Shown one piece after another: positions 1-34,012 of a stretch of DNA of 64,000 bases. The stretch comes from Candidatus Eiseniibacteriota bacterium (GTDB lineage: Bacteria; Arandabacterota; Arandabacteria; Arandabacterales; Arandabacteraceae). How positions within the stretch are numbered: position 1 is the first letter of the stretch; each line of letters opens with the position of its first letter. Location of the stretch: contig JAZDEY010000035.1 of the NCBI GenBank assembly GCA_043808325.1, positions 2,853 through 66,852 on the forward strand, read 5' to 3'. The notes under the pieces were generated by a model. It was given only the letters and a program-made list of their open reading frames with translations. It did no database searches and had not been told where the DNA came from. Made by a program: the position numbers and the translations under genes.

Positions 1-660
1 GGAGCGGGACGAGGAGGCGATTCGGGGCTGGGTGCGCAGCGAATGGCCCCGGGTAAAAAAAACGCCTGGAGGCTAAAGGCCAGTCTCGTTTTCATCGATG
101 AGAGTGGGCTCCTCATGGCCCCGCTCGTCCGCCGCACCTGGGCGCCGGTTGGACAGACCCCGGTCCTCTATCAACGAGGGCGGTCCCATGAGCGTATCTC
201 GATGATCGCGGCCATTACCGTCTCGCCCCGCCGACGCAAGGTGGGACTTTACTTTTCGCTCCTGGCCAACGAGAACGTCGTTACCCATTCCCTACTCCGG
301 TTTCTCCGGCAGATCCGACGCCAACTCGGTACGCCGATAATCCTCGTGTGGGACCGGTTGAATGTCCATAGATCCGCCCGAGCGATTCTCCAGCGCCGCA
401 ATCACTCCATCCATTCGGCCTTTCTGCCGCCCTACGCTCCCGAGCTGAACCCCGTGGAGGCTTTCTGGTCGTACCTCAAGATGAACCCTCTGGCGAACCA
501 CGCGGCCCTCGATGTCGAGGAGCTTCACCGGCGCGCCGGGCGTCACGCCCGCGCCATCGCCGCAGATCAGCACTTGCTTCGCTCCTTCATTCGCACAACA
601 CCACTTTCTCTACGTCTCAAATGAGACGTTACTTATGCGATGATCAATAAGCCGCGGCCA
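1..660 (+). mobile_element. IS630-family insertion sequence, right portion. The left end lies outside the window and the right terminal inverted repeat was not delimited.
   Basis: orfB (43..624) has IS630/Tc1-mariner DDE-domain hallmarks (LVFIDESG, PPYAPELNPVEAFWSYLK). Frame 2 at the window start reads ...EEAIRGWVRSEWPRVKKT, ending at a stop near position 75, which is typical of the end of IS630 orfA. The two frames overlap on an A8 run (gggtaaaaaaaacg, ~50-58). Confidence 0.75.
43..624 (+). CDS. IS630-family transposase, orfB / DDE catalytic part. It is probably made as an orfA-orfB fusion by a -1 frameshift.
   Basis: DDE-region motifs. The reading frame is open to position 1 in the same frame. 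A8 slippery heptamer lies immediately upstream. Confidence 0.75.
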   Translation: MAPGKKNAWRLKASLVFIDESGLLMAPLVRRTWAPVGQTPVLYQRGRSHERISMIAAITVSPRRRKVGLYFSLLANENVVTHSLLRFLRQIRRQLGTPIILVWDRLNVHRSARAILQRRNHSIHSAFLPPYAPELNPVEAFWSYLKMNPLANHAALDVEELHRRAGRHARAIAADQHLLRSFIRTTPLSLRLK

Positions 661-1079
661 ATCCCACCCAGTGCCCCCAACATCCGCCCAAACACTGGCG
701 TGCTCTCGGCACCCCCTTCACCCCAAAACATTGCGCCAACTACGGACCCGGCTATGCCCCCTATGAGCATGCCCGCACCCGCGCCGATAACCGCATGGCG
801 AAACCTGGATCCAGAGGGGCGCCACACTTCGATATGCGTGATCGACCGCAGGGGAACTGCCAGCGATCGCTGATTACTCTGCGTGATCCAAAGCGTGTCC
901 CTTGCCGCAGCCAGAACGGTTGCAACATGGTGTGAAAGCACAGGTGCATTCGCATCCACGCGTACCCGCGTGCCCGCCGCGGGAGGAAAAGAGGAGGATG
1001 AAGGCTTCGCGGGCTGTGCAGGCTGCACCCACACCAAAAGACTCATGAGACTACACAAAGTCAAACCTAACCACCGCAT
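633..1079 (-). CDS. Cassette protein A1: signal peptide, periplasmic domain and C-terminal glycine-zipper (GAGAGMLIGGIAG) membrane segment. SlyB/17-kDa-antigen-like glycine zipper. C-terminally shorter than A2/A3.
   Basis: Start taken as MRW (RBS aggagg 6 nt upstream), consistent with A3. Paralogous to 2525..3085 and 4553..5101. Stop lies 9 nt from the IS630 orfB stop. Confidence 0.6.
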   Translation of the reverse strand: MRWLGLTLCSLMSLLVWVQPAQPAKPSSSSFPPAAGTRVRVDANAPVLSHHVATVLAAARDTLWITQSNQRSLAVPLRSITHIEVWRPSGSRFRHAVIGAGAGMLIGGIAGSVVGAMFWGEGGAESTPVFGRMLGALGGIGRGLLIIA

Positions 1080-1179
1080 GAGACACCTCCTGCTAAAGCA
1101 TCGTGATGTCATCTACCTTCGAAACGTCCCGCTATCACTCGTCTTATACCGCGAGAATGGTCTCGGCAACGGCTTCAGG

Positions 1180-1810
1180 TTCTCACGGACGTGTGACAGT
1201 CAGCTCCGCTATCCCCGGCCCCGGTCCTTTATTCTGAGGAGCGTAGGGCTCAGACCAGAAACGCAACGGCGGTCTACATTCACGTTGTACCTTGGGCCGT
1301 AGTCTATCGCAACCGGAATCGATGGCTCAGATAAGAGAAAGTCTCGGGTGAAGATGAACGAAGATGGCAATATCCTGCCCGCTCATCATGGGAGTCTGGC
1401 TTTGACTCGGGATCCGTAGCGATCCTCTCAAGGGCGCCGTGATGGGCGGGGGCACCGCGCCGGTCGACGCTCTTGTCGGCTGAACCGCCACAGGTGTGTG
1501 TCTCATTTACACACGGTCCGGCAAGGGCGTGCCAGGGAAGATATGGCGGGCTCGCTCAATTCATTCGCAGCCAATGATAGATGGTGTCCCCGCAAGAGGT
1601 TGGACAAGCGACGTGGCGCCGCAGCATCCGCACGCGGCATGCATGCGCTTCGCTGATTCCTCGATGCCGGTGGAAGAGCCGGTTTCCTGCTGCTCACCAG
1701 CACGATAATTGAACGCAACGGACCGGAGCGAGATCTGCAATGCGTCTGCTCAATCTGCGGCAGAGCCATGCCATCGGGTCAATTCTCGCCTGGACGGCAA
1801 GTCCTGCTAG
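1180..1810 (-). repeat. Conserved spacer copy 1 (~630 nt) between cassette genes B1 and A1. ~95% identical to 3180..3835.
   Basis: Direct sequence comparison with copy 2: ~13 substitutions plus one 18-nt indel over the ~275-nt stretch aligned base-by-base; the rest was compared by eye. The flanking A and B genes are only ~50-60% identical at protein level. The block begins exactly at the B stop codon and ends ~70 nt before the A start. Confidence 0.8.
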
Positions 1811-2411
1811 CTAAGGTGCCGTGCCCACATAAACGGCATAGATGAAGCCAACGGCAGCGGCGACCGCCAAGCCGATCACGCCGACGCGCCAGCCCGGCGG
1901 GCCCAGACGTATGCCTGCGTGCAGGCCGCCCCCCTCGAGGCCACCCTTCAGGAGATCCATGCCTATGTAAGGAGCAACCCGATCTTTGTAGTTGACGTCG
2001 ACGTGCCCTGCAAAGCCCGGCTGCACATCGCCTCCTGACCACGTGCGACCCAATATCGGCCCTCCCGCGAAGTTCATGCTCCAGTTCGGGCTCATCCATC
2101 GCCTGACCCTGAGCTTTAGCCCCCCACGAACGCATTCCAAATTGTTGTCAAAGGCGATGTAAGTAGTCCCCCCGATGGCATAGCGCTCACGGTAGTTGAC
2201 CATCCATCCGATCTCGGAACTAAGGCAGATCGGGTCGTAGGTCTTAGGCATGTAGCCGAGCCCAAACTCCGTTATCCAAAATGTTTTGCAGGCAGGCGCG
2301 GGTTTCCCTCGGAAACACATCCGTGCGCTAGCCGGGACAGCTACCAGGTACAAGAACGAGAATGCGGCGATCGCCAGAATGACAAGTGCTCTCCCGATGG
2401 TGTGCCTCATT
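1811..2411 (-). CDS. Cassette protein B1: N-terminal signal peptide, ~150-aa Cys-containing extracytoplasmic domain and C-terminal hydrophobic anchor.
   Basis: Start at MRHTIG with RBS aaggaggg. Signal peptide ALVILAIAAFSFLYLVAVPASA. C-terminal VGVIGLAVAAAVGFIYAVYV. Paralog of 3836..4435. Confidence 0.55.
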
Positions 2412-2524
2412 ACTCCCTCCTTTCCCGCGCGGTCAAGACGCATACTATGGCCTCTGCAGCATAGCGCACGCTTCATCAGCACGGATGCTGCATGGCCTCC
2501 CTGCCGTCATCAAGACTCGGGAGC

Positions 2525-3085
2525 TCAGAACACGGGCAGGGTCAGTGCCAGCCCCATGTGACTATCCCTATATGATCTAAGGCTCACCTTCACCGGGAGG
2601 GTCACTTCCTCCCACTTTCCCGTAGGTAGGACAAGCCCGACCGTCGTACCGACCACCAGACCAAGCGGAATGCCCACTATCACACCCCACATAGCCGCGA
2701 TTTTGTCGTCCCCACCCCTACCCTTCGCATCGGTATACGCTTCGAGCGCGCCTAACGCTATGCCCCCGATGAGCATGCCGGCACCCGCACCAATAACCGC
2801 ATGGCGGGCTCGCGAGCCGTAGGCATGCCATACTTCGAGACGGGTAATCGACCGCACGGGCACTGCCCGGGGCCGCTCGTAAGCTCGCCCAAGCCAAAGA
2901 GTGTCGCCGCTGGCAGCCATGACCGTCACAACATGGTGAGACAGCTGATGTGTGCTGGCATCCACTCGTACGCGCTCACCCACGGGGGGAGGAAAAGAGG
3001 CCTTATCGCGCTCGGCAGACTGAACGGGCACAGCCAGAACCATCAGAATCACAAGACCGCACAAACTCATATCTACCCACCGCAT
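2525..3085 (-). CDS. Cassette protein A2 (glycine-zipper membrane protein paralog)
   Basis: MRW start with RBS aggagg. GAGAGMLIGGIALG glycine zipper plus second hydrophobic segment. Confidence 0.6.
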   Translation of the reverse strand: MRWVDMSLCGLVILMVLAVPVQSAERDKASFPPPVGERVRVDASTHQLSHHVVTVMAASGDTLWLGRAYERPRAVPVRSITRLEVWHAYGSRARHAVIGAGAGMLIGGIALGALEAYTDAKGRGGDDKIAAMWGVIVGIPLGLVVGTTVGLVLPTGKWEEVTLPVKVSLRSYRDSHMGLALTLPVF

Positions 3086-3179
3086 GAAACACCTCCTGCT
3101 AACGTGCCGTAACGTCATCGACCTTCGAAAAGTCCCTACCGCAATCCTCGTGATAATGTGAGAATGGCTGCGGCTTCAG

Positions 3180-3835
3180 GTTCTCACGGACGTGTGACAG
3201 TCAGCTCCGCTATCCCCGGCCCCGGTCCTTTATTCTGAGGAGCGTAGGGCTCAGACCAAAAACGCAGCAGTAATCTACATTCGCGTTGTACCACGAACCG
3301 TACTCTATCACAACCGGAATCGATGGCTCAGATAAGCGAAAGTCTCGGGTGAAGAGGAACGAAGATGGCAATATACTGGCTGCTTATCCTGGGAGTCTGG
3401 CTTTGACTTGGGATCCGTGGCATCACCCTCAAAGGCGCCGTGATGGGCCGAGGCCCCGCGCCGATCAACGCTCTTGTCGGCGGAACCGCCACAGGTGTGT
3501 GTCTCATTTACACACGATCCGGCAAGGGCGGGCCATGGAAGATATGGCGGGCTCGCTCAATCCATTCGCAGCCAATGATAGCTGGTGTCCCCGCAAGAGG
3601 TTGGATAAGCGGCGCGGCACTTGCTCCTGCAAGCGACGTGGCGCCGCAGCATCCGCGCACGGCATGCATGCGCTTCGCTGATTCCTCGATGCCGGTGGAT
3701 GAGCCGGTTTCCTGCTGCTCACCAGCACGATAATCGAACGCACGGGACCGGAGCGAGATCTGCAATGCATCTGCTCAATCTGCGGCAGAGCCATGCCATC
3801 GGGTCAATTTTCGCCTGGACGGCAAGTCCTGCTAG
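3180..3835 (-). repeat. Conserved spacer copy 2. Same element as 1180..1810, with an 18-nt insertion.
   Basis: Near-identical sequence, including the shared hairpin-like motif ggtgtgtgtctcatttacacac and the gcatgcatgc palindrome. Confidence 0.8.
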
Positions 3836-4435
3836 CTACGGCGCGGTGCCAGCTGCAAGGAGAGCGAGGAAGCCAAAGGCAGCAGCCACCGCCAGGCCAA
3901 TCACGCAGAGGCGCCACCCGGGGTGCCATCCCGGTAGCCCCAGACGTACGCCTGCATGCAAGCCACTCCCCTCCTCAAGGCCGCCCGCCAGGGCATCCAG
4001 GCCTAAGTAGGGAGCAACCCAATCCTTGTAGTTAACGTCGACGTGCGCTGCAAAGCCCGGCTGTACGCCTTGTGACCCACGACCGAATATTGGCCCTCCT
4101 GCGAAGTTCATGCTCCAATTCGGACTCATCCACCGCCTGACCCTAAGCATGGGCCCGCACCGAAAAGGTTCGCGGAAGGCGACATAAGTAGTCCCCCCGA
4201 TGGCATAGCCCTCACGGTAGTTGACCATCAACCCGATCTCGCAAGTGGGGCAGGCCGGACGGGGCGTTCCCTGCATATAGCCCAGCCCAAACTCCGTTAT
4301 CCAGAATGTCTTGCAGGCAGGCGCGGGTTTCCCTCGGAAACACATCTGCGCGCTGGCCGGGACAGATACCAGGTAGAGACAAGAGAACGCCGCGATTCCC
4401 AGAATGATAAGGCCTCTGGCGATGAACTGCCTCAT
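3836..4435 (-). CDS. Cassette protein B2 (paralog of B1)
   Basis: Start MRQFIARG with RBS ggaggg. Same CFRGKPAPACKTFWITEFGLGY core as B1 and a C-terminal hydrophobic tail. Confidence 0.55.
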   Translation of the reverse strand: MRQFIARGLIILGIAAFSCLYLVSVPASAQMCFRGKPAPACKTFWITEFGLGYMQGTPRPACPTCEIGLMVNYREGYAIGGTTYVAFREPFRCGPMLRVRRWMSPNWSMNFAGGPIFGRGSQGVQPGFAAHVDVNYKDWVAPYLGLDALAGGLEEGSGLHAGVRLGLPGWHPGWRLCVIGLAVAAAFGFLALLAAGTAP

Positions 4436-4552: not shown

Positions 4553-5101
4553 TCATAAGAAGGCCACCGTCAGTGTCAACCCGGGACGGCCATTCCCTAT
4601 CGATCTGATGCTCACCTTCCCGGGGAGGGTCACATCCTCCCACTTTCCCGTAGGCAAGACGAGACCGACCGTCGTGCCGATCAGCAGCCCCGTGGGAATG
4701 CCCGTGATCATGCCAGCTGCGGCGGGGGATAGGGCCCCAATGTCACCGCTCACTGCACCCAGCACAGTGAAAGCTACGACCCCTATGACCACGCCTGCGC
4801 CCGCACCTATAGCCGCGTGCCGAGACCGTGAGCCAGAGGGGCGCCACACTTCGAGGTGCGTGATTGACACCACGGGCACGGCACGGGGCGGCTTGTCAGC
4901 CTGCGCGAGCCACAGAGTGTCACTACTCACGGCCCTTACGATTGCGGTATGCTGAACCAGTACAGGTGCGCGAGCATCCACTCGTACGCGCTCACCCATG
5001 GGGGGAGGAAAAGAGGCCTTATCGCGCTCGGCAGACTGAACAGGCACAGCCAGAACCATCAGAATCATAAGACCGCACAAACTCATATTTACCCACCGCA
5101 T
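4553..5101 (-). CDS. Cassette protein A3 (glycine-zipper membrane protein paralog). First unit of the array; no B copy upstream.
   Basis: MRW start with RBS aggaga. GAGAGVVIGVVA zipper. C-terminus similar to A2. Confidence 0.6.
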   Translation of the reverse strand: MRWVNMSLCGLMILMVLAVPVQSAERDKASFPPPMGERVRVDARAPVLVQHTAIVRAVSSDTLWLAQADKPPRAVPVVSITHLEVWRPSGSRSRHAAIGAGAGVVIGVVAFTVLGAVSGDIGALSPAAAGMITGIPTGLLIGTTVGLVLPTGKWEDVTLPGKVSIRSIGNGRPGLTLTVAFL

Positions 5102-5652
5102 GAGACATCTCCTGCTACCACAGCTGTAGCGTTAGTGGCTTTCTCAACGTCGTGATAGATCAGAACCGCAGCTCCTATGCGTTCGGGTCATGCTCCTCAC
5201 TCGACAACCATCTTCACCGTACCCAGCCCTCTGCGCTCCTGCTAAGTAGATAGCACACAACCCGAATTGGAGGCGAGGCCGTGCTCTTCTGGAGATCGTA
5301 CCACACGCCCCGGGCATCCGCAATTGCGAATCGAACCTCCTACGCACGAATCCTGATACTATTTGATACATTCATTCACACCCGTGTGTCTATCTGACAC
5401 AGCAATCATGGACCTACACTGGGAAACGCCACCTCATTTCGATGGGCCGATCGTTCTGCCGCTCGTAACTGTCGTGGGCGCAAAGGCCTGGACAGAGGGG
5501 ACGCGGACGGCATATGCTTTTCGCTTCGGCCGTCGCGCTGGCACGGGGATTGCGACCATCCGAGGGCTGGGTGATTGTAGCCAATGGACCCGTCCGGGCA
5601 GAAACATTTCGCCCGGAGAAATCGTCATTACTCTCGAAAGGAGGATTCATCA

Positions 5653-29305: not shown

Positions 29306-32300
29306 TCATTCGACGACAACTAGTTTCTTGGTTGTGTTCTCGGTACTAGTCGACAATCTAACAAAGTAGATTCCCACAGGAACCTTCTGGCCCGACTGGC
29401 TCATGAAGTTCCAGGTAACCGAATGGCTCCCCGCGCCGACATCGGTATCCATGAGATTCGCAACCACACGGCCGTGTATGTCGTAGATATCGATGCGCAC
29501 ACGGTCGGCGCCCGCGGTATAGAACGCGAGGCTTACTTGAGACTCGCCCCTGGCACCGATCTGGTCGCCGAACTCAAAGGCAGCGGCGGCCGACGGGCTC
29601 ATACTGCCTTCGTCGTCGCGTCCGGGCACCCTGATGCAGTCAGACCCGGTGAACCGAGTACCATTCCTAAGCACGCCCGTGAGCGTGACCTTGACAGTCT
29701 GACCTTTGATGAGGCTCAGGCCAAGCCTCCCGATGCCCTTGTCCGGGAACTTGAGCACCAGGTCGAGGTATCCATCAGGACCTTGATCGCTGCAGCCGCA
29801 GAGCTGGCCCATATAAGGGGTCCCGCCATCTTCATACGACCACTTCTCCGGGGCAAGCGACGCGCTCGAGCCTTCGGCCGTCAATCTGATCGACGGCGGG
29901 TCGATATCCCTGACGTTGAGGCTCCTGGTCCCGAGAATCGCTACCCTCAGCACGCCTTCGGCCTTGGGATTGACCACATTCGGACAGTCGCCCGGATTCA
30001 CATCGACATAGACCCGAATCTCGTTAGCCACGACCTGGGTGGTCTCGGCGGCCACAACCGGCATCGGCGTCTGGGTGCTGGTGACCGATGCCGTGTTGAT
30101 GAGATCACCCGTCGGGGTGCCGTCATTAACCTTGACCCACAGGTGCACCAACAAGGAGCTATGGGCAGGCAACGGATCGAGATTCCACGTCACCTGATGG
30201 GTGGGGACGTCGAGCGTATAGGGGCTCGTCGCCCACACGAAACTGACGTCCGCGGGCATCTGGTCCATGATGGTCCCGCCGGTCACCTCGACGTCGTTGT
30301 CATTGTAGCAGCGTATCTCGTAGCGGACCGTATCGCCCGGAGCAACCGGCGCCGTCAGGTTATCCGTCTTGGTGAGCCTGAGCGGCACATACGGGTACTG
30401 GCAGACGTCTATCGAGAGGTTGTCCCCGGCATGGTTACCCGGAGCCTCCCAGTAGATCCAGCATTCGTTGTAAAGCACGCTGCCGTAAGCCACGCTAGGA
30501 TCGACCTGTACGTCGAGCTCGACCGAACCGCTCGCCAAACCGGCCAAGGTGCCGATCGTCCAGAGCACGCTCGGAGGCGGACCTGGCCGGTAGAGCCCAC
30601 CATGGGTGTCGGTCACTATCAGGCCGGGGGACACCGGTTCGAGCACCAACACGTCGGCGACAGGTATGGCATTGGGGTTATGGTAACTCAGCGTATAGGT
30701 AATCGTGCCGCCAGGACTGACGCAATCCGTAACGCTGGAGGTCTTATCGATCTCAAGCGGCAACAACGGACAGGCGTCCCGAATGATCGTCTGGCAGCAA
30801 CTTGCGGCGTTGCCGCAGCCATCGGAGGCCGTCCAGCACCTGGTGTAGGTCATCTCCCCAGGATTGGGACCGGGCACCGATGTGTCTTGACTGACGACTA
30901 CCTGTGGTGCCCGATTGCAGTTATCCACGGCCGTAGGCGGCGTGAAGATCAAAGGATCGCTGCAGCCAATGCGGCCATCTGCCGCACAGGTTATCGTCGG
31001 TGGAACCGTGTCCACGATCGTGATGGTCTCGAGACAGGACGCTGTATTGAGACAATCGTCGTTCGCCGTCCACTGGCGTCGGATCTGGTATGATCCCGGA
31101 CAGGCACCCGGCACGATCGTATCATTGAAAGTAATGGCCAGGTTCTCGTCGCAGTTGTCGCTTGCGGTCGCCACGCCGAAATCGCCTATTGAGCTGCACT
31201 CGAAGGTTCTATCCGACGGACACATGATAGTCGGTGGAACCGTGTCCCACACCCGAATCGTCTGGGTCACATCGGTATGGTTGCCGCAAGGGTCGCTCGC
31301 GCGATAGGTACGCGTGATCAACTCGGGACAGGTCTGGCCGTTCGGCTGGTCACCGACAAACACCACGGTGACGAGACCGCAATTGTCGATCGCGCTCACG
31401 CTTGTCGGATCCGGATCAGGCACGTCGCCCGAACACTGGACATTGACATTCGATAGCGGGTCAACCTGCGGAGGAGCCGTGTCGTCGATCTGCACCGACT
31501 TCTCGCAGTGGCTGATCGGACCCGCGGCACCCATCACATCGAGGATAACCAGGAAGGATGTGCCACAGGCAGATCCGGCCTGCACCTGGGCCACGGGACC
31601 GTTATTGGGCCCCACTATAGTGCCGCTTCCCGCGACCGTCCATACAAACCCGATCGTGCCCGGAGGCGGTGGGCCGGCAAGCTGGAACGGATTCACCGAG
31701 CTCGGGCATACCAGGTCGGGCCCAGTAATGATGCACCCGCAGCCTACCTTCACTATATTCTGGCAGCACGGCAGTGACGTGTTGCCGCAAGCATCGGTCG
31801 CCGTCCAGCACCTGGTGTGAGTGACTTCACCCGCACCCGGCCCGGGGGTCGAGGTTGTTGAGACGACATTCAGCACCGGCGACGGGTCACAGTTGTCGGT
31901 GACGGTCGGATCGGTGAAGACCGGCGTCTCGTCACACTCGATGGTCACATTCTGGGCGCAGGTGATGACCGGCGACTGAGTATCCCGCACGGTGATTGTC
32001 TGCACACAGGTCGAAGAGTTGCCGCACGCGTCGGTCGCGCGGTAGGTCCGCGTGATCGTCTGGTTGCACGCAGGCCCGCTGGGCACATCGCCGACATAGG
32101 TAATTACCGCGCTGCCGCAATTGTCGGTCGCCGTCACGAGCCCGATGTTTGGATTCGGGATATTACTCAGACACTGTACTGTGGTTCCTTGAGGACAAGC
32201 TGTGATCTGCGGCGGCGTGGTGTCATGCACTGTGATCGTCTGCATGCAGGTCGCAGTGTTGCCGCAGGCATCGGTCGCAGCCCAGGTCCGCGCTATGCTG

Positions 32301-34012
32301 TAGTTGCCCGCACAATTCCCTGGGGTCACCACATCACTGTGGGCAACCCCGGGCGCCGGATCGCAATTGTCGATCGCTGTCGCTGTACCCGTGTTGCTCG
32401 GATCGCTCGAGGCACTGCATTCAATCGTGGTGTTCGCCGGACACGTGATCTCAGGGACCGTCGTGTCATCCACCGTGATCACCTGCTGGCACTCCGCCGT
32501 GTTGCCGCACGCGTCGATCGCCCTATACGTACGTGTTACCGTGAGAACATTCGCTCCCACGCAGGTACCGCTCTGGACGTCGCTCCGCCAGGAGATGGCT
32601 ACATCACCACAGTTGTCCCCCGCTATCACCGCGCCGGTGTTGATCGGGGGCACCTGCGTCAGGCACTGTACCGTCGTGTTCCCGGGACAAGATGAGATTG
32701 TCGGCGCTATGGTGTCGCTGGTCGTCGCTGTCTTCTCGCATGTGCTCGAGAAACCGGCGGCGTCCACCACCGTCAGGTGCACCGTATATGTTACGCCGCA
32801 GCCACCACTGGTCTTCACATTTACCGACTGGCCGCTCGGAGGAGACTGAAGCGTACCGCTGCCCGTCACCGACCACTGGTAAGACTGCATCCCAACAGGC
32901 CCGGAGTACGAACTGGTCGCATTCGGGCATACCGTCGTGGGGCCATTTATCAAACACGCACAAACATGCGTAGTGTGGTCCACTGTCCGCGGCGACGGCG
33001 TCTCGGTGGCAACCACCGAGCACGTGTTGGAGAAGGATGACCCACCCGCCGTACTCGCCTTCACCATCACTACCAGGTCCAGGCTACCACCTGCACTACC
33101 CGCCACCGTACCTATAGTCCAGGTCACCGTGCGAGTCCTGGCGTTATAAGAACCTCCACCAGTCGACGACACATAATCCACCTCGGCAGGTAGAGGATCG
33201 GTGATCTCGACATGAGTAAGCGCCGTCCCGTTGGTATTGGTGTACCCTATGGTGTAAGTCATGTTCGCGCTCGGGAAGGCACACCCATCAGAGGCAATCC
33301 CATCGCCCTTGGTCAAAGTGATCGGTTGCAGGGCAACTCGGCAGGGCTCATCACCAGTGAGCCCACCGACGCCACCCGAGCTGATAAGGATCGGGAAGTC
33401 CTGGTACGGACCTGTCACAAAATCGCAATCAACCACGTCGAGCTGATTGGTCGCAGGGTTCGCAACCGGGGTCACGTAGCCCGGGCCCGTGGCTGCCAAC
33501 CAGATGTAGCCTGTGGCCAAGCCCCAGCCGTACTGGCAAGTCGTCCATGCAATCGCGGTGCCTTCCCCGGAATAGAGGATGCCGCCAACCGCAATGTCGC
33601 CCTTGCAACGGGTCCAGCTGCCGCTACCCCACTCGATCGGCCACGTCAGACCGAACTCGTGGGTGGTGTACGAAGCGAGGTCATAGAACACTGGCATGGC
33701 ATCTACGTCACCGGTGGGTACCCAGGTCTCATTGATGCCTTCGCAGGCCGTGAACGCGGGATAACTCTTGGTGCATGAAGTCGGATGCGCCTTGAGGTGG
33801 ATCGCGATCTTGCAGCCAAGGTTCTGCCCTGCGAAAGCCGGGGCCGTTGCCGTCCCAACGGCAAACGCCAAAGCTAGGACTGCCACCGCGAGACACAGTG
33901 GCTTGGAGATCCGGTGTTGCATGGAACACACTCCTTTCAACTCACCTTCGGTTTTCGCTCGTAAGAAAAATGCGGAGAGGCTGGATTGTGATTCCCTGAG
34001 CAGACCTGTCAC
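29306..34012 (-). CDS. Giant (1568-aa) cell-surface protein: signal peptide, DUF11 repeats, multiple HYR-like Cys-rich repeats, and T9SS-type C-terminal sorting domain
   Basis: N-terminal signal MQHRISKPLCLAVAVLALAFAVGTATAPAFA. Repeated ATDNCG...TRTYRATDACGN...TITVxDTTPPxIT units. DUF11-like LTKT...VTWTIG segments. C-terminus ...VGIYFVRLSTSTENTTKKLVVVE matches the Por_Secre_tail / FlgD-Ig-like pattern. Confidence 0.8.
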   Translation of the reverse strand: MTGLLRESQSSLSAFFLRAKTEGELKGVCSMQHRISKPLCLAVAVLALAFAVGTATAPAFAGQNLGCKIAIHLKAHPTSCTKSYPAFTACEGINETWVPTGDVDAMPVFYDLASYTTHEFGLTWPIEWGSGSWTRCKGDIAVGGILYSGEGTAIAWTTCQYGWGLATGYIWLAATGPGYVTPVANPATNQLDVVDCDFVTGPYQDFPILISSGGVGGLTGDEPCRVALQPITLTKGDGIASDGCAFPSANMTYTIGYTNTNGTALTHVEITDPLPAEVDYVSSTGGGSYNARTRTVTWTIGTVAGSAGGSLDLVVMVKASTAGGSSFSNTCSVVATETPSPRTVDHTTHVCACLINGPTTVCPNATSSYSGPVGMQSYQWSVTGSGTLQSPPSGQSVNVKTSGGCGVTYTVHLTVVDAAGFSSTCEKTATTSDTIAPTISSCPGNTTVQCLTQVPPINTGAVIAGDNCGDVAISWRSDVQSGTCVGANVLTVTRTYRAIDACGNTAECQQVITVDDTTVPEITCPANTTIECSASSDPSNTGTATAIDNCDPAPGVAHSDVVTPGNCAGNYSIARTWAATDACGNTATCMQTITVHDTTPPQITACPQGTTVQCLSNIPNPNIGLVTATDNCGSAVITYVGDVPSGPACNQTITRTYRATDACGNSSTCVQTITVRDTQSPVITCAQNVTIECDETPVFTDPTVTDNCDPSPVLNVVSTTSTPGPGAGEVTHTRCWTATDACGNTSLPCCQNIVKVGCGCIITGPDLVCPSSVNPFQLAGPPPPGTIGFVWTVAGSGTIVGPNNGPVAQVQAGSACGTSFLVILDVMGAAGPISHCEKSVQIDDTAPPQVDPLSNVNVQCSGDVPDPDPTSVSAIDNCGLVTVVFVGDQPNGQTCPELITRTYRASDPCGNHTDVTQTIRVWDTVPPTIMCPSDRTFECSSIGDFGVATASDNCDENLAITFNDTIVPGACPGSYQIRRQWTANDDCLNTASCLETITIVDTVPPTITCAADGRIGCSDPLIFTPPTAVDNCNRAPQVVVSQDTSVPGPNPGEMTYTRCWTASDGCGNAASCCQTIIRDACPLLPLEIDKTSSVTDCVSPGGTITYTLSYHNPNAIPVADVLVLEPVSPGLIVTDTHGGLYRPGPPPSVLWTIGTLAGLASGSVELDVQVDPSVAYGSVLYNECWIYWEAPGNHAGDNLSIDVCQYPYVPLRLTKTDNLTAPVAPGDTVRYEIRCYNDNDVEVTGGTIMDQMPADVSFVWATSPYTLDVPTHQVTWNLDPLPAHSSLLVHLWVKVNDGTPTGDLINTASVTSTQTPMPVVAAETTQVVANEIRVYVDVNPGDCPNVVNPKAEGVLRVAILGTRSLNVRDIDPPSIRLTAEGSSASLAPEKWSYEDGGTPYMGQLCGCSDQGPDGYLDLVLKFPDKGIGRLGLSLIKGQTVKVTLTGVLRNGTRFTGSDCIRVPGRDDEGSMSPSAAAAFEFGDQIGARGESQVSLAFYTAGADRVRIDIYDIHGRVVANLMDTDVGAGSHSVTWNFMSQSGQKVPVGIYFVRLSTSTENTTKKLVVVE

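Follow-up and report, generated by a model that had tools for sequence, protein, structure and literature searches.

Among the nearest described counterparts of the locus analysed here is the HMA4 triplication of Arabidopsis halleri, for which mosaic divergence arising through interlocus gene conversion in tandem paralogues has been described (bioRxiv 10.1101/2025.10.29.685298; see also PMC3749932), and gene conversion is likewise reported for the repeated antigen genes of Mycobacterium tuberculosis (PMC12046097, PMC13061034). The present locus resembles both cases in consisting of tandem paralogues in which sharp-edged tracts of high identity sit within much older divergence, and in that the position of the tract varies with the pair of copies compared; it differs from them in that its main tract is an entire intergenic spacer, the coding sequences having escaped. 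A further parallel is offered by rRNA operons, the copies of which evolve in concert together with their spacers (reviewed in PMC6002687), in that repeats within a genome, non-coding spacers included, are kept similar by gene conversion. In the operons, however, it is functional RNA genes that are homogenised, whereas here the genes have diverged and the spacer alone appears homogenised.

If the spacer is instead compared with the large RNAs that Rfam lists as OLE, GOLLD, ROOL, HEARO and raiA, it is like them in being several hundred nucleotides long, intergenic and devoid of coding signal, but unlike them it has no Rfam match, no excess stability, no covariation between its two copies (a comparison of little power) and no homologues found in other genomes. 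A different comparison is with paralogous families of surface proteins, such as bab/sab/hop in Helicobacter pylori and vsp/vlp in Mycoplasma, in which the 5' ends or upstream regions are homogenised. What the present array shares with these families is that the products are secreted or envelope proteins, that the 5' UTR and signal-peptide region are near-identical (here in B2 and B3) while the mature parts diverge, and that a conserved non-coding stretch lies upstream of some of the copies. It differs from them in giving no sign of phase or antigenic variation (neither an invertible element nor a site-specific recombinase, and neither a homopolymeric tract nor a silent cassette, was seen), in having an environmental Eisenbacteria metagenome-assembled genome (MAG) as its host, and in that its conserved block, at 650 nt, comes after gene A and does more than precede gene B.

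The array lies on the minus strand, within the first 5.2 kb of a 64-kb window (the whole stretch of DNA that was analysed), and in order of transcription it reads B3-A2-S2-B2-A1-S1-B1, where A (two copies) and B (three copies) are genes and S1 and S2 are the two copies of the spacer. The repeat unit (B, A, spacer) recurs at a spacing of about 2.0 kb, the repeats being paralogous within one genome. A1 (1811..2410, minus strand, with its TAG stop at 1811..1813; NCBI V1694_04280) encodes a secreted or membrane protein of 199 aa, and its paralogue A2 (3836..4435, minus strand, stop at 3836..3838; V1694_04290) a protein of the same length, with 75% amino-acid identity to the first; both are present at NCBI as proteins of a Candidatus Eisenbacteria MAG, and the PGAP locus tags run consecutively, so that the depositors' annotation has no gene inside the spacers. 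B1 (633..1079, minus strand, ATG at 1079..1077) has a signal peptide and a glycine-zipper-like segment, B2 (2525..3085, minus strand) is the paralogue downstream of S2, and B3 (4553..5101, minus strand) is a further paralogue, the region upstream of which contains no spacer-like block. The products of both A and B are small, have signal peptides and fall in no Pfam family.

At the B1 end the array is bounded by an ORF on the plus strand (43..624) for a DDE_3 (IS630-type) transposase (PF13358, E 1.6e-27), which adjoins the 3' end of B1, only 9 nt separating the end of this ORF from the B1 stop codon; at its other end the ORF runs off the start of the window. B1 is also shorter at its C-terminus, where it does not have the part common to B2 and B3 (...PTGKWE.VTLP.KVS.RS...), and below position 730 or so it gradually ceases to resemble B2. 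Given that the shared C-terminal part is missing and that the transposase is 9 nt away, the array looks as if it has been cut short by an insertion sequence at this end.

The spacer is non-coding and occupies 1170..1810 in S1 and 3171..3835 in S2, in each case running from the stop codon of A to the region upstream of the next B gene (B1 for S1, B2 for S2). When 1165..1815 was aligned with 3166..3840 there were 601 matches, 50 mismatches and one 24-nt insertion, giving 92.3% identity. The insertion, which is the sole indel, is present in S2 only (3606..3629), the corresponding junction in S1 falling between 1604 and 1605; by manual count its sequence, TAAGCGGCGCGGCACTTGCTCCTG, agrees with that of the next 24 nt, CAAGCGACGTGGCGCCGCAGCATC, at 13 of 24 positions, a partial likeness that could reflect either an old local duplication or chance. 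In 60-nt windows identity is at least 0.80 throughout the block, excepting two windows that lie across the indel (0.60-0.65), and the sliding-window profile jumps at both block edges. On the A side the edge coincides with the stop codon to the base: the 29 nt that follow it are identical between the copies, while among the last four sense codons of A three differ at synonymous positions between A1 and A2. On the B side the edge lies about 90 nt upstream of the B1 start. The tract takes up nearly all of the intergenic region and stops short of the coding sequence; the gene-free interval, at about 700 nt, is long for a bacterial genome.

Within the block the substitutions are unevenly distributed, their density being 10.7% in 1165..1500 and 4.4% in 1500..1815, a two-fold difference between the halves for which a chi-square test on substitution counts gives p ~0.004. 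The longest stretch identical between S1 and S2 is an invariant run of 88 nt (1170..1257), the chance of which is about 0.04 in an approximation where 50 substitutions are placed uniformly. The roughly 90 nt between the spacer block and the start of B are otherwise poorly conserved, apart from a motif upstream of B1 (1108..1131) and of B2 (3109..3133), reading GTCATCnACCTTCGAAAnGTCCC on the plus strand and containing the palindrome TTCGAA; it is missing upstream of B3, and may belong to a B promoter or operator.

A sequence-only reading of the same DNA had already pointed to a second copy of the block, and this is indeed present (1170..1813 and 3171..3838). The motifs it named can be found as well, namely ggtgtgtgtctcatttacacac at 1493..1514, gcatgcatgc at 1637..1646 and gtgtgacagtcag at 1191..1203, as can the ORFs that it described at 1496..1708 on the plus strand and 1503..1769 on the minus strand. 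Its account of the differences needs to be revised, since the count of about 13 substitutions is approached only within the half 1500..1815, which contains 14 of the 50, and the indel, put at 18 nt, is actually 24 nt long. Its anchoring of the block, from the B stop codon to some 70 nt upstream of the A start, was the wrong way round, A and B both being on the minus strand. On the central point, that the block is conserved far above the flanking genes, it gave a fair description: divergence in the block is 0.077 per site, as against pS values of 0.375-0.60 in the genes.

The extent of that contrast can be seen from the other segments of the unit. The coding sequences of A are 79.5% identical and those of B1 and B2 63.7%, for which the Nei-Gojobori method gives pS 0.375 and dS 0.52 (A1/A2) and pS 0.60 and dS 1.2 (B1/B2), with dS 0.62 for B2/B3; purifying selection on the genes is moderate by the same method (dN/dS 0.33-0.41). 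As for the other non-coding parts of the unit, the B-to-A intergenic region is 74.6% identical and the B-proximal upstream region 69.9%, so that 25-30% of their sites differ and the spacer is 3- to 4-fold less diverged than they are. Fisher tests of the identity contrast between the spacer and the other unit segments gave p values from 3e-7 to 9e-32. Set against the pS of the genes and the divergence of the intergenic parts, the figure of 0.077 for the spacer argues that the unit is old and that only the spacer is young.

A protein-coding gene within the spacer was considered as a candidate and rejected, the evidence from phase, synonymous excess, GC3, Pfam and the protein database being negative in every case. 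The substitutions fall on the three codon phases 19, 17 and 14 times, i.e. without periodicity; each of the six frames contains 29-35 non-synonymous against 7-12 synonymous codon differences, together with 3-9 stops; and GC content by codon position is flat in the block (0.61/0.60/0.54), whereas GC3 reaches 0.70-0.78 in genuine genes of the window (the A genes and two with housekeeping roles). Six-frame translations of the spacer gave no match to Pfam, and no conserved small ORF with a ribosome-binding site is common to the two copies. There is a minus-strand ORF that is open in both (88/96 aa), which by manual count shows 8 amino-acid substitutions and an 8-residue indel, with 12 nucleotide substitutions; a search of 5.8 billion proteins gave no relative of its 96-aa form. 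Translation past the stop codon of A was also considered, with a negative result; it would extend the protein by about 38 codons to the next stop, with 4 amino-acid changes between the copies.

That a non-coding block should have diverged 3- to 4-fold less than the remaining non-coding sequence of its unit is what might be seen if it were a functional element held by purifying selection, either an RNA found with A (derived from its 3' UTR, or intergenic) or a long leader or promoter for B. Several features of the locus can be read in its favour: the sharp boundary exactly at the A stop codon; the fact that the block accompanies both copies of A (there being two A genes, two spacers and three B genes); the heterogeneous density of substitutions, including the 88-nt invariant run, which differential constraint would yield; and the unusual length of the gene-free interval. 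Taken with the evidence in the next two paragraphs, this explanation is nevertheless judged rather unlikely, and its more specific version, an orphan functional RNA or cis-regulatory module of some 650 nt that is coupled to A and has been kept nearly unchanged by purifying selection while the genes diverged, is thought less likely again.

Among the checks proposed in the sequence-only reading were an Rfam scan, a covariation test and the prediction of promoters and terminators, and none of these spoke for a functional element. At gathering thresholds Rfam gave 0 matches over the whole window, and in E-value mode, over 1050..3900, it gave four matches at chance level (E 1 to 8.6), all scoring less than half the gathering score. 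Consensus folds of the two copies (RNAalifold, which has little power with two sequences) had compensatory changes in 0 of 189 pairs on the minus strand and in 1 of 187 on the plus strand. The scan for promoter and terminator consensus sequences found nothing in the block common to S1 and S2. Folding free energies, for their part, did not stand out from those of shuffled sequence on either strand, whether the block was taken whole or in 120-nt windows: relative to dinucleotide shuffles the z-scores of the whole block (both copies, both strands) were -0.14, +0.50, -1.26 and +0.63, and no 120-nt window had z < -2.5 in both copies, the best of them reaching only -1.2 to -1.9. This window surrounds a small hairpin, GTGTGT/ACACAC with a 7-nt loop (1496..1514), that is identical in S1 and S2. 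Nor does the block contain internal direct repeats that would hint at an operator array. Two candidates picked out individually were rejected: a helix assembled by hand from the substitution clusters at 1266-1272 and 1292-1296, which is unconvincing (one compensatory, one wobble and one disruptive change), and a sigma-54-like TGGCAC...TTGC at about 1535..1522 on the minus strand, which when examined by eye proves to be wrongly spaced (GG-N9-GC) and to be altered by mutation in copy 2. Nothing in any of the tests run supports the reading of the spacer as a structured RNA. There is in addition a more general argument against constraint, in that conservation as even as this, over 650 nt at a dS of at least 0.5, would place the spacer among the most constrained RNAs known, and a constrained RNA at that distance would be expected to have saturated variable regions; even identity over 650 nt together with a single indel is easier to reconcile with recent common ancestry than with constraint.

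A functional element might also be expected to have relatives, and none came to light in the protein database or in collections of genomes, metagenomes, viruses, plasmids and phages. Within the 64-kb window there is no further copy of the spacer. The probe ACGTGTGACAGTCAGCTCCG had no match in GTDB species-representative genomes and viral contigs, and CCCCGGTCCTTTATTCTGAGGAGC and CACAGGTGTGTGTCTCATTTACACAC had none in JGI metagenomes, all of these being exact DNA probes of 20-26 nt that were chosen from the most conserved stretches and that diverged homologues would escape; blastn of the spacer against plasmids and phages likewise gave no match. The family of gene A is itself tiny, with 12 relatives among 5.8 billion proteins, and the nearest of these outside the MAG is 51% identical. 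At seven loci with A relatives (L001-L007) neither blastn nor tblastx revealed anything similar to the spacer, B was absent from the neighbourhood, and no long stretch devoid of genes came after A; at these loci A is followed by the next gene after about 15-110 nt, by unrelated sequence or by the end of the contig. With no spacer at the A relatives and none upstream of B3, which evidently manages without one, the block is lineage-specific and is no regular companion of either A or B. As regards A itself, what its family conserves is a signal peptide, a hydrophobic C-terminus and two motifs, C-x(3)-KP-x-P-x-C with its two invariant cysteines and G-x(2)-LR-x-R-x-W, and its distant relatives at L004, L005 and L007 sit in same-strand runs of small unannotated genes.

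The fact that the block is unrelated to the sequence around A homologues elsewhere, together with its sharp edge at the stop codon and the IS630-type transposase at the end of the array, might suggest that a non-autonomous mobile element, or what is left of a decayed gene, was inserted independently downstream of each A. This is considered very improbable. The two copies have in common no terminal inverted repeats, target-site duplications or conserved subterminal hairpins, the window holds no third copy, and the 20- to 26-nt probes from the block went unmatched in genome, metagenome and viral collections, while for a decayed gene both a Pfam match in some frame and a codon-position GC signal are lacking. 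The position of the block, which is the same relative to both repeats, is more simply regarded as inherited with the tandem repeat. Integron attC sites were also considered, by reasoning only, and rejected; such sites are roughly 60-140 nt long, so that a block of 650 nt is too long, and the genes here are paralogues rather than unrelated cassettes.

A different kind of evidence comes from the 5' ends of B2 and B3, where there is a second tract of high identity. It covers 2959..3101 on the B2 side and 4975..5117 on the B3 side (both minus strand), corresponding to codons 1 to about 42 together with some 16 nt of 5' UTR, and contains 6 mismatches in 143 nt, whereas a sliding-window comparison shows its flanks to be only 58-62% identical. 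In codons 1-45 of B2/B3 the value of pS is 0.05-0.08, compared with 0.4-0.6 further downstream in the gene; B1 does not have the tract. Selection on the protein cannot explain the homogenisation of synonymous sites, and recombination can, so that the tract, as judged from the sequences themselves, bears the mark of recombination that recently carried sequence from one paralogue to another. In divergence it is on a par with the half of the spacer that is better conserved (4% and 4.4%). With this second converted tract in it, the array is one in which patchy interlocus gene conversion operates, and such conversion accounts for the spacer with the fewest assumptions.

It is accordingly gene conversion, among the two explanations put forward in the sequence-only reading, that has gained from the present analysis (through the tract in B2 and B3), and the structured RNA, leader or operator array that has lost by it (through Rfam, folding, repeats and the search for homologues). 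That reading had also named what would count against function, namely that no homologous spacers should exist elsewhere and that the identity should be explained by a very recent duplication in which the A and B genes were replaced by recombination; no homologous spacers were found elsewhere, and recombination would account for the identity, so this much of the statement agrees with the findings, whereas the replacement of the genes is another matter (see below). On balance it is rather more probable than not, from a comparison of two copies with no outgroup, that the identity of the spacers stems from interlocus gene conversion between the repeats.

The sequence of events under this explanation would be as follows. 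The unit (B, A, spacer) would have been duplicated long ago, and its genes would since have diverged (dS ~0.5-1.2) under moderate purifying selection; A1/A2 and B2/B3 would derive from one duplication event, with B1 older still, and the similarity of dS between A1/A2 and B2/B3 is consistent with one event. Non-reciprocal homologous recombination would then have overwritten one spacer with the other, probably on several occasions, the process presumably being that which also gave rise to the tract in B2 and B3, which would leave the spacer as the largest homogenised patch in the array. Its halves, differing two-fold in divergence, and the 88-nt identical run could then represent successive conversion events of different ages, and the content of the spacer would be quite ordinary, comprising a 3' trailer for A and the promoter and leader of B. 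That the edges of the tract fall at gene ends may mean that conversion cannot enter diverged coding sequence, or that it is selected against there; on theoretical grounds, one might suppose that mismatches in the selected, diverged coding regions block conversion and thereby fence in a neutral spacer that is still converting. There are nonetheless points on the other side. An edge lying exactly at the A stop codon counts against conversion, as a random end-point would rarely fall there, and so does the extent of the tract, which is the whole intergenic region minus coding sequence; the uneven substitution density and the 88-nt run, as already mentioned, would equally be yielded by differential constraint, a functional element would leave a tract of just this shape, and the unusual length of the gene-free interval is not something that conversion accounts for.

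The coincidence of the divergence boundaries with the gene ends would also be accounted for if it were the spacers that dated a true recent duplication, A and B having been replaced later by divergent alleles from other strains, with the spacers as homology arms. The arrangement of the locus is suitable for this, S2 and S1 being direct repeats that bracket B2-A1, and the products of A and B, as secreted or envelope proteins, are of a kind that often undergoes allelic replacement. Such a history is, however, distinctly improbable given the pattern of divergence: the dS of A1/A2 (0.52) is about that of B2/B3 (0.62), which fits one old duplication and not independent imports; the dN/dS of 0.33-0.41 gives no sign of diversifying selection; and the B-to-A intergenic region, which the supposed cassette would include, has kept pace with the genes in its divergence. 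Donor alleles, moreover, did not come to light, the nearest A homologue being 51% identical.

Since the source of the sequence is a MAG, it must also be asked whether the arrangement might be an artefact, produced by a short-read metagenome assembler that joined non-contiguous loci or strains via near-identical stretches, and the identical runs of up to 88 nt inside a repeat are of the sort that might lend themselves to this. The 50 differing sites show that the copies are distinct sequences and not a collapsed repeat, and although misassembly could change the order of the units it could not have created the contrast in identity between spacer and genes; an artefact of this kind is therefore regarded as hardly credible. 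One other feature of the window may be mentioned here, a 1568-aa ORF on the minus strand (29306..34012) with HYR-like (PF23237, PF02494), DUF11 and FlgD-Ig domains, inside which a 75-nt sequence is repeated (at 30809 and at 31781) and the product of which is probably a large surface protein.

As to what the spacer means for its host, were the functional reading true it would represent a new large non-coding element in an uncultivated and poorly studied phylum (Eisenbacteria), although the present data contain no positive sign of one. If interlocus gene conversion is the true explanation, the array would be a case of ordinary concerted evolution in a lineage-specific tandem array, and a caution follows that, inside a single genome, greater conservation of a spacer than of the genes beside it does not imply function when the copies being compared are paralogues able to recombine.
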